DNA of 64,000 nucleotides from an uncultured Ruficoccus sp. (GCA_965140785.1 OZ223497.1:96001-160000), one strand, 5' to 3'; positions 3,120 through 49,184 are shown, counted from the first letter of the stretch. Numbers and translations are program-made. The notes: a model not told the origin generated them from the letters alone.

Positions 3120-3230
3120 GTGGAGTATGCGATTTCTGAGTTTCTTATTCCTTGGCAGCAACTTATGGTTTTTTGAAAAAGTTGTCTTGAAACCGCAAGT
3201 TTTACTTCTGCTAGCATGATGGCTGGCTGG

Positions 3231-3253
3231 GGGAAGCTGCGAAGCGCTGACCT
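3231..3253 (+). repeat. 23-nt mini-hairpin insert GGGAAGCTGCGAAGCGCTGACCT
   Basis: Absent from the homologous site in copy B (GGC TGG|ATG AAC, ~36623); present at 48963-48985. Confidence 0.85.
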
Positions 3254-3296
3254 ATGAACCGTCATCAGCAGCAAGTCATTGAATACTTGGTCGAGG

Positions 3297-3338
3297 TACC
3301 GAACTGAGGCGCAGCCTCGGCGACAAAGCGAAGCGCCC
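3297..3338 (+). repeat. 42-nt double mini-hairpin insert, hybrid of 36667-36708 and 37519-37555
   Basis: TACCGAACTGAGGCGCAGCCTCGGCGACAAAGCGAAGCGCCC. Confidence 0.85.
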
Positions 3339-3559
3339 ATGCCTGAACAAGATGATTTTCTTCAGCGAGGCAGCCTTACGGAAAGTCATCAGCGAATACG
3401 TGCTGCATTACCATCATGAGCGACCGCATCAGGGCCGCGATAACCAAATCATCGAGCCGGACGTAGAAACCTTTCGCAATCAAGGCCCGATCCGAAAAAT
3501 CGCACACCTCGGTGGTCTCCTGAATCACTATGGCTGAGTCCCACCTTTTGGCCCAGTAG

Positions 3560-4540
3560 CTATGATAGTTTTCCGGTCGGGTTATTGTGTTGGTTGGTTT
3601 GTTTTTTGAGGTTCTGGCGCAGAGAGGCCGTAGGCCGAACGGAGCCGGAACCTGTGTTTGGTTGTTTGGCAAACTGGGCGGGCGTGAGCAAGCCCAGAGA
3701 GCGGTGAGGTCTTTCGTGATTATGCAGATGCCTGTAGTCATCGAAGATGACGCGTGATTCACTGAGGGTGTAGATGAGTTCGCGATTGAGGCATGTCTTC
3801 GCTGCGCTCGAGTGTCGCCGTGCCTGAGGGCACAGGCTCGGTACGCGCCTAAACTTCTCGTTAAAACTCTCGACGAAACCGTTCTGCCAGGGGCATCCCG
3901 GGTCGATGTAGAGCGTTTTTATCTGGTTATCGGACAGCCAACGCTGGATACACTTAGCAATGAACTCAGGGCCGTTATCGGAGCGGATAAACTCCGGGGC
4001 CTCATGTTTGGCGATGGCCCCCTGGAGCAGCGTGAGTACGTCTTCGGCTTTGATCGCCCGGTCCGAATGGATGCAGTGGCACTCGCGTGTGTACTCGTCG
4101 ATGAGGTTGAACACGCGCAGCTTGCCGCCACGCTGGGTGTAATCGCTCACAAAGTCCCAGCTCCAGACATGGTTGCGACGGAGCGCCTCGGTCGGGAGCC
4201 CCGTGGACAAGCCCTGGCGACGCCTGCGAGGTTTGGGCGCGGGCACTTGCAGATGCTCCTCGCGACGCACCCGCTGCACGAGCTTCTTGCCCACGGCCCA
4301 GCCCTCATTACGCAGCTTTTGCGTGATCTTGCGGTATCCAAAAAACGGATACTTCCGGGACATCTTCACGATCTCGGATTCGAGCAAACGTTGTTTCTCG
4401 GGCAGGGGCTTGGGGCGATACCGGTAGGTCGAGCGAGCAATGCCCAGCCATCGGCAGACCTGTCTCCCGGAGCACCGGAGCGCAGACACCACCTTCGCGG
4501 CGGTGCTGCGCTGGCGATCCGGGCTCAGGCGTTTTTTTCC
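3560..4540 (-). CDS. IS3 transposase OrfB (DDE), with a 16-aa net in-frame insert
   Basis: GYRKI, WSWDF, RSDNGPEF, PWQNGFVESFN, HNHERPHRSLG; VPSLCPQARRHSSAAKT stands where E is expected in FRR-E-CLN; start approximate (frameshift fusion). Confidence 0.88.
   Translation of the reverse strand, partial: GKKRLSPDRQRSTAAKVVSALRCSGRQVCRWLGIARSTYRYRPKPLPEKQRLLESEIVKMSRKYPFFGYRKITQKLRNEGWAVGKKLVQRVRREEHLQVPAPKPRRRRQGLSTGLPTEALRRNHVWSWDFVSDYTQRGGKLRVFNLIDEYTRECHCIHSDRAIKAEDVLTLLQGAIAKHEAPEFIRSDNGPEFIAKCIQRWLSDNQIKTLYIDPGCPWQNGFVESFNEKFRRVPSLCPQARRHSSAAKTCLNRELIYTLSESRVIFDDYRHLHNHERPHRSLGLLTPAQFAKQPNTGSGSVRPTASLRQNLKKQTNQHNNPTGKLS
3795..3843 (-). repeat. 49-nt double mini-hairpin insert in IS3 orfB
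   Basis: Minus strand CGC G[TACCGAGCCTGTGCCCTCAGGCACGGCGACACTCGAGCGCAGCGAAGAC]A TGC. Confidence 0.85.
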
Positions 4541-36569: not shown

Positions 36570-36666
36570 AGAGAAGATTTGAAACAACAAGCTTACCTAT
36601 TACTGACCATGATGGCTGGCTGGATGAACCGTCAGCAGCAGCAAGTCATCGACTATTTGGTCGAGG

Positions 36667-36708
36667 TACCGAACTGAGGCGTAGCCTCGGTGACAAAGCG
36701 TAGCGCCC
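36667..36708 (+). repeat. 42-nt double mini-hairpin insert
   Basis: GAG G[TACCGAACTGAGGCGTAGCCTCGGTGACAAAGCGTAGCGCCC]A AAC; empty allele GAG GAA AAT at 49022-49030. Confidence 0.9.
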
Positions 36709-37456
36709 AAACCGCATTCTCCGTGAGCAACTCGACATCCATGCCAAAGGCAAGCGCATCCGTTTCAATGCGACCCAGCGCAGACGCTTGGCCGAGAAAG
36801 GCCGTTGCTTGGGACGCAAGTTGCTGATGAATATCGCGACGCTGGTGACGCCGGAGACGATCTATCGTTGGCATCGCCAATTCGTCGCAATGGCTTATGG
36901 TCCGAAGGGTAGGGATCATTCCGTTGTCCATGCTCGGCGGGCCGAGCGCAATGCGCTCATCATCAAGCTTGCAGTTGAGAACTCAGGCTGGGGATACACG
37001 CGCATTCAGGGCGTGATGCAGAATCTCGGTTATCCCAAGCTGAGCACTTCGACCATCGGGGAGGTGCTGCGAGAGGCAGGTATTCGCCCGTCGCCGGAGC
37101 GTAGCAGTCGTCTGGACTGGAAGACGTTTATCCGTGTTCATGCCGATCAACTTGCGGCTACGGATTTCTTCATGGTGCCGGTATGGACGTTGCGTGGCCT
37201 GGCCATGTATCGGGTGCATTTCGTGATCGACCTGCTGACACGCAAGGTGGAGATCACGCACATCGGTTGCCAATACTCGGGCGAATTGATGCTTCAAATT
37301 GCCCGGAACCTGACGGATGCGTTCGAGGGATTCCTGACCGGCAAGAAATACCTGCTGCACGATCGGGATACTCTCTTTACAAATGTGTTCCGCGAGTTGT
37401 TGCGCAGTAGTGGCACTATCCCTTTCAGGCTTCCTGTGTGCATGCCGATGATGAAC

Positions 37457-37493
37457 GGCGGGCGCCTACGCCAGCCCGCCCGGCTACGCCGGG
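37457..37493 (-). repeat. Double hairpin (25-nt net insert) over the third DDE acidic residue
   Basis: GGCGGGC..GCCCGCC and CCCGGC-TAC-GCCGGG; shifts the frame before FVKSIK. Confidence 0.7.
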
Positions 37494-37518
37494 TGCTTCG
37501 TTAAGTCGATCAAGCGTG

Positions 37519-37555
37519 TACCGAACCTGCGAAGCGGCGACAAAGCGAAGCGCCC
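37519..37555 (+). repeat. 37-nt double mini-hairpin insert
   Basis: CGT G[TACCGAACCTGCGAAGCGGCGACAAAGCGAAGCGCCC]A TGC. Confidence 0.88.
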
Positions 37556-38129
37556 ATGCCTGAACAAGATGATTTTCTTCAGCGAGGATGCTCTGCGGAA
37601 AGCCATCAGCGAATACGTGCTGCATTACCATCATGAGCGACCGCATCAGGGCCGCGATAACAAAATCATCGAGCCGGATGTAGAAACCTTTCGCAATCAG
37701 GGCCCGATCCGAAAAATCGCACACCTCGGAGGGCTCCTGAATCACTACTATCGCGACCCATTACCCAAAATTGAAGAAGAGGAGGGTCGGGCCGCATGAG
37801 CTTTTCCGGTAGTTACTTTTCTTCAAAAAATGCCCGAATTCGATGCTCGGGTGACTCCTTCCCCATCGACTCATATGCCCTGAATCGGCAAAATTATGGG
37901 CGTATGATTTCGTCCTCCAACCTGCAAACGAAAGGATTCTTGGCACGCGCAAGTGACTGAGCGATGCGCGTCCATGCGACTGCGTGCAACGCTACTGATT
38001 TAATTACGCCTTAACTCGAAAATGAATGAAGTTGCTGTATGCTGGTAATCAGCGACTTACGATAGGCCGTCCGCGTCCCGCCACCTCCAGGAGACAACGG
38101 ATTGCCGTTTTGAAAACGTTTGCCGCCTA

Positions 38130-38804
38130 TTACGCTTTGCGACGCTTGAAGCCAAGGATGCCCGCCAACGGGATCGCAATCAGAAGCAGCGTACTGCTGT
38201 CCGGCTCTGGAATACTCTGCGCCACGAAGTTAACAGGTGCTCCAGTTCCGGCACTCCAGGCGGCGGTGGTTCCATTGTCATTCCATTGCACCAGCGTGGT
38301 TCCGTTAGAGGATTCGGCCTGATAGAAGTTCGTCAGTGCATTAGAGACGAATGAGATGACGATGGAATAGGTCTCGTTGTCGGTGAGCGTGTAGGGCGTG
38401 GTCAGATCGAAAGTCATATAACTTTCGCTATCGTAGGTGGTGCCCGTGGCACCCGTTTCGCTGTGGAGAGAGGTGATTGGGAGCTTGGTTTCAGCGTCCG
38501 CGCTGTAGATATCGAGGCTCAATTCGGTTCCTGACGCCAGTGCAGAGGAGGCGACAAAAAACGTGATTTTATCAAGGGCCACCGTTTCGCCAGCGGTGAA
38601 AGTGATGCCGACCTGGCGAACATTGTTTGTGTAGTTGCGCAACTGAATGTTGTACTCCTCGCTGCTCACCACGGTGTTCTCGAGAAAGACATCTTCGGAG
38701 GGCAGCGTGTCAGTGTAGCTGATGTTGAGCGCATTCAGAGTGGAGGCAGCGCCCAATAGGGTCAGTGCGGTCAGAGGAACGAGATATTTGTTGGCTGTTT
38801 TCAT
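38130..38804 (-). CDS. PEP-CTERM surface protein
   Basis: Signal peptide; Thr/Ser-rich beta domain; IPEPDS, TM helix, KRRKA. Confidence 0.9.
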   Translation of the reverse strand: MKTANKYLVPLTALTLLGAASTLNALNISYTDTLPSEDVFLENTVVSSEEYNIQLRNYTNNVRQVGITFTAGETVALDKITFFVASSALASGTELSLDIYSADAETKLPITSLHSETGATGTTYDSESYMTFDLTTPYTLTDNETYSIVISFVSNALTNFYQAESSNGTTLVQWNDNGTTAAWSAGTGAPVNFVAQSIPEPDSSTLLLIAIPLAGILGFKRRKA

Positions 38805-48844: not shown

Positions 48845-49184
48845 TGGAGGTGTGGAGTATGCGATTTCAGGTTTTCTTGCCCCTTGGCAGCGACTTATGG
48901 TTTTTTGAAAAAGTCGTCTTGAACCCGTAAACTTTACTTTTGTTGAGCTTGATGGCCGGTGGGGGAAGCTGCGAAGTGCTGACCCATGAGCCGCCAGCAG
49001 CAAGTCATCGAATATTTGGTTGAGGAAAATCGTGTTCTTCGTGAGCAACTCGACATCCACGCCAAAGGTAAATGCGTCAATGCGACTGCGTGCTACTCAA
49101 TGACCTTAACTGGCAAATGAGTGAAGTTGCTGGGTGCTGGTAATAAGCGACTTATGAATGCGAGTCCGCGTCCCGCCACCTCCA
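48845..49184 (+). mobile_element. 340-bp non-autonomous deletion derivative (copy C) of the rve element
   Basis: TGGAGGTG...CACCTCCA terminal inverted repeat; 5' transposase remnant fused to the 3' tail. Confidence 0.75.

Follow-up and report, generated by a model that had tools for sequence, protein, structure and literature searches.

To our knowledge, mobile DNA far shorter than 100 nt is poorly understood, with few families described and most of these lacking a known enzyme. REP, BIME and REPIN repeats, which are moved by RAYT transposases (Y1 HUH), consist of short, GC-rich hairpins with unpaired boxes beside the stem, are non-autonomous, combine their hairpin units into mosaics and have neither terminal inverted repeats (TIR) nor target-site duplications (TSD). 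PATEs of the IS200/IS605 type likewise lack TIR and TSD, carry subterminal hairpins within asymmetric ends of fixed orientation, insert seamlessly 3' of a conserved target of 4-5 nt and excise precisely. Small structured inserts in protein-coding genes, some of them in frame, are represented by the Rickettsia palindromic elements (approximately 100-150 bp) and the byps of yeast mitochondria, which need matching take-off and landing codons. We know of no IS200/IS605, REP/RAYT, DDE or recombinase element that replaces two bases of its target. The small dispersed repeats (SDR) of Nostoc, which Elhai et al. are said to have described in 2008, are reportedly hairpin repeats, 21-27 nt long and mostly intergenic, that show signs of recent insertion. 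These SDRs are cited in PMC3116915. REPs tagged with CGTC or TGTC, which include RPE-4 and RPE-6 of Rickettsia and dRS3 of Neisseria, are described by Di Nocera et al. 2013 (PMC3733652) as carrying the tag outside an 8-9-bp stem that starts with A-T and closes on a 4-5-nt loop, as often having an unpaired CCA tail, and as being sometimes intragenic and without a dedicated transposase.

Here, we analyzed a window of 64,000 nt (C26:96001-160000) from the genome of an uncultured Ruficoccus sp. (4.36 Mb in 50 contigs, 59% G+C, assembly completeness 91%), of which 5.3% is repeated DNA. The initial annotation of this window had reported four related hairpin inserts in transposase genes, and all four are present at the places it gave and share one architecture (Table 1). 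They belong to a family for which we propose the name TACC element, a non-autonomous element of about 38-51 nt that is a real, unusual member of the very small, REP- or SDR-like mobile repeats. The hosts include ISA, encoding a 372-aa rve/rve_3 transposase that is IS481-like according to the Pfam match of an insert-free paralog, and ISB, which is assigned to the IS3 family because it encodes an HTH_Tnp_1 orfA and an HTH_21-rve-rve_3 orfB. In a limited literature search, no published description was found of GCGAAGC hairpins or hairpin repeats inside transposase genes like these.

Table 1. Coordinates of ISA, TACC elements and other mini-inserts in the 64,000-nt window
Feature	Position	Strand	Basis or remark
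ISA transposase gene with three mini-inserts, otherwise intact	36624..37799	+	Pfam match of insert-free paralog; frame reconstruction
TACC element I-43, ISA site A (L-V-E/E/N)	36667..36709	+	Replaces AG of GAG
25-nt insert of another mini-insert family (hairpin stem GGCGGGC..GCCCGCC), after an Asn codon and before Gly-Tyr codons	37456..37480	+	
TACC element I-38, ISA site B (K-R/E/C-L)	37519..37556	+	Replaces AG of GAG
Internally deleted ISA derivative	3160..3540	+	Site A left flank joined to site B right flank via one hybrid insert
23-nt GCGAAGC-containing mini-insert just 5' of ISA start codon	3231..3253	+	Third mini-insert family
TACC element I-43 hybrid at deletion joint of ISA derivative	3297..3339	+	
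TACC element subtype II (50 nt), R-R/E/C-L-N site, IS3-family orfB relic	3794..3843	-	
Empty ISA site A (GAG GAA AAT), decayed ISA fragment	49022..49030	+	

When AG is substituted for both TACC inserts of the window ISA copy and its 25-nt insert is taken out, an uninterrupted frame of 368 aa results, so the three mini-inserts are the sole lesions of this copy. The insert at site A adds a net 41 nt and puts a TGA in frame, while that at site B adds a net 36 nt and keeps the frame free of stops; the subtype II insert in the orfB relic also preserves the frame without a stop. Other ISA copies carry further lesions, with one frameshift in C26:163870 and many in C4:167400. Elsewhere in the window, a 224-aa ORF on the minus strand (38130-38804) ends in what, judged by eye, resembles a PEP-CTERM sorting signal (..IPEPDSSTLLLIAIPLAGILGFKRRKA).

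The ends of the TACC element are fixed (5'-TACCGA(R)C ... (C/A)CA-3') and enclose a first hairpin located between TACCGA and G(G/C)YGACA and, in most subtypes, a second mini-hairpin, GCGNAGC. Subtype I is 38 or 43 nt long, subtype II 49-51 nt, subtype III 38 nt and subtype IV 37 nt. A hairpin directly follows TACCGA in the minimum-energy fold of 11 of the 13 variants folded, and at least eight different stems occupy this one position, which indicates covariation and bears out the earlier remark that the inner stem varies yet stays paired. The nearest-neighbor stability of these hairpins is ordinary when compared with dinucleotide shuffles (z -2.3 to +1.0, with a parameter set that has no special term for GNA triloops), and a thermodynamic excess was accordingly rejected under these parameters.

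The initial annotation had pictured two bracketed units inserted as G[unit]A[unit]A, whose removal would restore a GAA codon with no base lost. This model had to be replaced. Both insert-free ISA copies (two of five aligned) read GAG at sites A and B, where filled copies read G followed by TACC...CA, and GAG is likewise found at the three corresponding sites of the insert-free, high-copy ISB. In addition, contigs from public sequencing runs that align to the window skip one single block with ends TA..CA and have AG in its place, as seen for run X1 at site A and for metagenome X3 at site B. One contiguous element therefore replaces two bases. The comparison covers assembled contigs of public runs against the window and is blind to rare excision or new insertions.

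Seven distinct sites are occupied, namely ISA A and B, ISB 1, 2, 3 and 4, and the site of subtype IV. The replaced purines are AG at five of these (ISA A and B; ISB 1, 2 and 3), AA at ISB site 4 and GA at the subtype IV site. The splitting of a Glu codon, proposed earlier as the rule, does not hold, as what is replaced is two bases: at ISB site 4 the subtype III element takes the place of AA across a TGG/AAA boundary, out of codon phase, and subtype IV lies antisense to its transposase gene. Among the 27 copies of the family, 23 are oriented in sense and four in antisense. The 43-nt form brings an in-frame TGA and a frameshift, and the 38- and 50-nt forms lengthen the reading frame by 12 or 16 codons without a stop. 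No inverted ends and no target duplication were found at TACC elements, which show the loss of 2 nt instead. The left flanks end in ..GCGTG, ..CGAGG, ..GCGGG, ..CGATG, ..GGTGG and ..GAGAC and have no conserved tetranucleotide in common. Six empty sites folded as single-stranded DNA had no shared secondary structure at the target, the replaced bases being inconsistently placed. These comparisons show precise, repeated insertion at a few fixed places, with two purines replaced each time (G/AG/ at five of seven sites).

Apart from the link to RAYT, the features given above for REP, BIME and REPIN repeats are shared by the TACC element, which differs from REPs and REPINs in having no GTAG tag at an end of the palindrome, in forming no doublets and in its intragenic instead of intergenic location. 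Where GTAG is present at all, it is part of a loop (GCGTAGC) and varies to GAAG or GCAG. In contrast to REP-RAYT systems, in which the RAYT gene is bordered by the repeats themselves and co-occurs with them across genomes, the RAYT-like genes found here have different repeats on their flanks, and the TACC element replaces two target bases. Similarities to CGTC/TGTC-tagged REPs include a TGTC that precedes hairpin 1 on the lower strand, the CCA end of subtype I, and the 8-bp stem and 4-nt loop of subtype II; TACC stems begin with G-C, however, the tail next to hairpin 1 reads TCGGTA, and a second mini-hairpin unit of the GNA type and a strong site preference further distinguish the TACC element. 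Like the Nostoc SDRs, it belongs to the mobile hairpin repeats far shorter than 100 nt that occur nested within other mobile DNA and to which no enzyme has been assigned. The ends, hairpins and lack of TIR and TSD agree with those of PATEs, from which the TACC element is set apart by the absence of a conserved tetranucleotide in its left flank, the loss of two bases and a several-fold smaller size. It also differs from DDE-mobilized MITEs, as it lacks terminal inverted repeats and target-site duplications. Furthermore, it resembles Rickettsia palindromic elements and byps as a small structured insert in protein-coding genes, in some cases in frame, but the former are larger, and the codons that precede TACC inserts (GAG, CGT, CGC, GAC and CGG) have no in-phase 3' match across sites of the kind expected for translational bypass.

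The family was searched with IUPAC patterns, and the identical pattern read backwards served as the control. The full two-unit pattern has 19 matches in this genome and none when reversed, so the inserts are not due to chance. A more generic expression returned 22 matches, 20 of them real and two (C1:13395 and C10:235366) attributable to chance. Scanning the whole of the repeated DNA for indels brought to light seven further copies, of which three belong to subtype III and four to subtype IV. In total, the 4.36-Mb genome contains 27 copies, and 27 of 27 lie within IS481-like or IS3-family transposase sequence, in agreement with the earlier observation that metabolic genes are free of such inserts. 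One copy (C4:169534) sits in a single-copy IS3 orfB relic. Subtype I-43 is found at non-homologous sites of different IS families (ISA site A and ISB site 2), and conserved rve motifs (R/D-E-C-L) are insertion sites in three IS lineages. Most copies reside in old, decayed IS copies, and young ISB copies are empty.

The best target word, CGNGAGTGCCT, remains unfilled at 21 places, nine of which lie outside repeats, and target sites are free in 11 active ISB copies that are nearly identical to one another, as well as in two intact copies of ISA. The element is therefore either no longer active, or slow, or requires more than CGNGAGTGCCT. Several IS derivatives have lost their interior and retain a single insert at the joint. 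In ISA, these are the window derivative listed in Table 1 and the insert at C26:178767 (derivative copy C26:178724-179042); in ISB, the derivatives at C10:469905 and C39:139356 have site 1 joined to site 3 via one subtype II element with the loss of approximately 820 bp, and a solo subtype II element occupies ISB site 1 at C48:103843. Recombination between two same-orientation inserts within one IS, seen here through its products, explains these derivatives; acting on two direct TACC elements, it would delete the interior and give rise to short MITE-like IS derivatives.

We consider the TACC element to be a tiny non-autonomous mobile DNA that has repeatedly inserted in a site-specific manner, a reading to which we assign a probability of roughly 0.6. 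The inserts are far more alike than the sequences around them. Identity is 96.3% at site A (621 of 645 positions, summed over pairs) against 80% and 79% in the 100-nt flanks, 96.8% against 83% and 77% at site B, 95.3% against 65% and 72% at ISB site 2, and 89.6% against 67% and 62% for subtype II. Four site A inserts are identical at 43 of 43 positions. Pairwise dS among filled ISA copies ranges from 0.25 to 0.53, compared with 0.37-0.42 to the empty copy C26:80590, so the filled copies are not a young clade, and as omega is 0.06-0.2 for most ISA pairs, the ISA copies diverged under purifying selection. Selection acting on an old insert would equally account for the conservation of the inserts, with their changes concentrated in loop positions. 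ISA copies combine the four mini-inserts of this IS in a mosaic fashion, with up to four in one gene.

An unlikely alternative is that the element is not currently mobile, and that a few ancient insertions were spread by IS transposition and short-tract recombination between paralogs, the hairpins being kept by biased repair or selection. The predominance of old, decayed hosts, the empty state of young ISB copies and the presence of the element in only four of 401 genomes of the order would be expected in this case. However, the mismatch density in the 30 nt beside the insert is the same for filled-filled as for filled-empty pairs, and homologous conversion together with the flanks therefore did not spread the inserts; homologous gene conversion as a spreading route was ruled out on this ground. 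The occurrence of I-43 at non-homologous sites of ISA and ISB also speaks against it, as does an empty allele of a filled sub-lineage in another sample: site A is empty in contigs of run X2 and of metagenome X5 that belong to a sub-lineage with the right flank ..GGGAACAACTGAAGC, of which the present genome has a filled representative at C4:236765. Metagenome X5 also carries a filled ISB site 2. Shared positions in deeply diverged IS copies, flanks that were not co-converted and empty alleles thus support the site-directed micro-element suggested by the initial annotation.

Outside this genome, the restriction to transposase genes claimed earlier breaks down. Four of the 401 genomes of the order that were scanned contain module matches (19 in the present genome, one in the same-genus G003, 52 in G035 and one in G171), while the backwards control gave a single match in one genome. 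A phylum-level scan of 401 genomes returned only two further single matches (G370 and G667), which are chance-like, the backwards control giving three single matches. The match in G003 belongs to a relic of ISA that has decayed. G035 carries the module in the interior of a MITE of approximately 365-450 bp with TTAGCCCGGACTTCTCA inverted ends and a variable number of small hairpin modules; this MITE has 45 matches (L139, L141-L148 and L152-L181), and every match that spans the module region contains the module. A Pelagicoccus MAG carries a copy in an intergenic region. In metagenomes, a tight pattern identified 11 stretches, six of them apparently related, and three of these six adjoin group II intron RNA matches; one sits in a 211-kb contig. 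A loose-pattern contig scan yielded at least 119 stretches, and among the matches listed only L031 looked related by eye.

In two of the metagenome stretches (L190 and L198), the module lies within the T-loop of a repeated tRNA 3' end, approximately 190 nt downstream of a long-arm tRNA gene. A CGAACC-GAA-GGTTCG hairpin precedes the TACC module that interrupts the T-loop in both, and the arrangement looks like a remnant of a small tRNA-targeting integrative element. Because of the MITE, intron, tRNA-end and intergenic contexts, the module is tied to mobile or dispensable DNA and not to transposase genes as such.

These contexts also bear on the idea that the inserts are removable, intron- or IES-like elements that are taken out of mRNA or DNA or bypassed, leaving functional, conditionally expressed transposases and keeping ORF and insert under selection. 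We regard this as quite unlikely. It would account for a window ISA copy that has no lesions apart from its three mini-inserts, for the low omega between insert-bearing copies (0.06-0.13), for inserts conserved except at loop positions and for the in-frame, stop-free 38- and 50-nt forms. Contiguous removal leaves the frame two bases short, however, and Glu therefore cannot be restored. Furthermore, subtype IV is antisense and subtype III out of codon phase, other filled ISA copies have further frameshifts or truncations, the module occurs in non-coding DNA (the MITE and the intergenic region), and the sharing of an identical 43-nt insert by four copies with dS above 0.4 speaks for its recent arrival. 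TACC elements also have no Rfam match, which together with the two missing bases distinguishes them from self-splicing and BHB-type introns, and the intron-like reading is disfavored.

Several specific routes of removal were considered and rejected. By eye, neither GT..AG-type splicing nor +1/-1 frameshifting nor ribosome hopping restores the native residue across sites, and a hammerhead or other ribozyme was discarded, with no Rfam match at E<=10 besides one chance snoRNA match. There is a very small chance that transposase genes are conditionally gated by removable inserts, in a bacterial parallel to the IESs of ciliates or to unconventional splicing of mRNA. If so, a hairpin-specific enzyme would excise them from DNA or RNA and leave a near-native codon, and insert-bearing IS would stay under purifying selection and transpose only with the gate opened.

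It is very unlikely that the inserts are the work of host defense, i.e., of a dedicated system that recognizes transposase genes or transposition intermediates and writes a disabling hairpin cassette into them. The confinement of all copies to IS sequence in a genome with so little repeated DNA would be a natural outcome of such a system, but it is equally expected if selection removes insertions elsewhere. The presence of up to four mini-inserts per gene, their status as sole lesions of the window copy and the targeting of conserved rve motifs in three IS lineages are likewise compatible with defense. Against this stand the active ISB and intact ISA copies, which are untouched, the module of G035, which is stably retained in the interior of an amplifying MITE, and the other contexts, which are not transposase genes; in addition, no candidate machinery was found in the present genome.

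Returning to a site-specific mobile element, asymmetric ends and conserved single-stranded boxes beside the hairpin suggest that an HUH-like, structure-specific enzyme that cuts and joins single-stranded DNA, acting in trans, would insert the TACC element. The constant loss of two target bases would be a poor fit to known HUH transposons. Alternatively, insertion might proceed by offset nicks and copying of a template, which would be compatible with this constant loss. A retro-copied, SINE-like origin, in which reverse transcription would copy a small structured RNA into offset nicks, could explain the two bases lost at seven of seven sites, recalls R2-type target-primed insertion, which removes 2 bp, and would suit the three of 11 metagenome matches that adjoin group II intron RNA matches, but it is extremely unlikely given that the only reverse transcriptase in the 91%-complete assembly is retron-like with an unrelated hairpin of its own and that neither a poly-A stretch nor any other 3' priming signature is present on the element.

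No mobilizing enzyme was found among the Y1 HUH, reverse transcriptase and GIY-YIG candidates examined in this genome. A co-occurring HUH/RAYT nuclease or reverse transcriptase, raised as a possibility in the initial annotation, is thus not borne out. The genome contains two Y1_Tnp genes of the RAYT-like HUH type, 308 aa in length and 99% identical (C10:480129-481055 and C43:224708-225634; L149 and L150). They are bordered by inverted GGGGTCA..TGACCCC repeats and not by TACC modules, and no TACC module was found beside Y1 genes in five loci. Y1 homologs are absent from G035 with its 52 module matches and present in G002, which has none, and G171 has 20 matches to the Y1_Tnp protein. The Y1 genes were therefore rejected as mobilizers on account of their different flanking repeats and the lack of co-occurrence with the module.

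The sole reverse transcriptase gene is of the retron type (331 aa, YADD; C39:273644-274639, corresponding to L151 1270-2265) and is located within an island of low GC. Immediately upstream of it is a long perfect hairpin, preceded by a 245-aa ORF, and the region is probably a retron defense locus; as its hairpin is unrelated to the TACC element, this enzyme was rejected too. The only GIY-YIG match in the genome lies within a 515-aa frame, is not linked to the module and was likewise discarded. No full-length parent element was found in the search, two AT-rich places with the unit-2 motif that were considered as a parent proved to be chance matches, and the MITE of G035 is absent from the present genome.

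Other mini-inserts were observed alongside the TACC family. A second family of 24-25 nt with a GGCGG(G/A)C..GCCCGCC stem comprises the 25-nt insert of the window ISA copy and inserts at C26:164767, C4:146381 and C4:168291; related inserts are found at C25:52370, C25:74246 and C49:1236. It sits between an Asn codon and GGCTACG (N/G-Y) in ISA and at the homologous place in another IS3-family gene, as a pure insertion whose junction possibly bears a CGG repeat. In ISA, the insert has GCGTAGCGCCC on the opposite strand, as does TACC unit 2. The 25-nt insert is missing from a contig of metagenome run X3 and from a B-site-bearing copy on C49, despite flanks that are approximately 96% identical to those of C4:146443.

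A third family of 23 nt (GGGAAGCTGCGAAGCGCTGACCT) directly precedes the ISA start. In addition to the window copy in Table 1, it occurs at approximately 48962-48985 of the window and at C4:167437, C26:163912, C26:178703, C48:110791 and C50:87996, and its presence varies independently of that of the site A insert. Furthermore, an indel of 15-17 nt with GCTACGC (e.g., AGCCCGCTACGCTCCC) separates copies of another dispersed repeat at C10:749575, C13:97583, C14:14760, C25:193010, C26:188413, C39:6130 and C48:328662.

The TACC family provides clean evidence on very small mobile DNA in the form of exact ends, a constant two-purine rule, repeated targeting, empty and filled alleles, and visible consequences for the host genes. 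Inserts of this kind make intact-looking transposase genes appear as several fragments, which affects annotation. The family provides a tractable system in which to search for the enzyme that mobilizes such mini-elements, and it makes it possible to test whether insertion sequences are silenced with the help of parasites of parasites.
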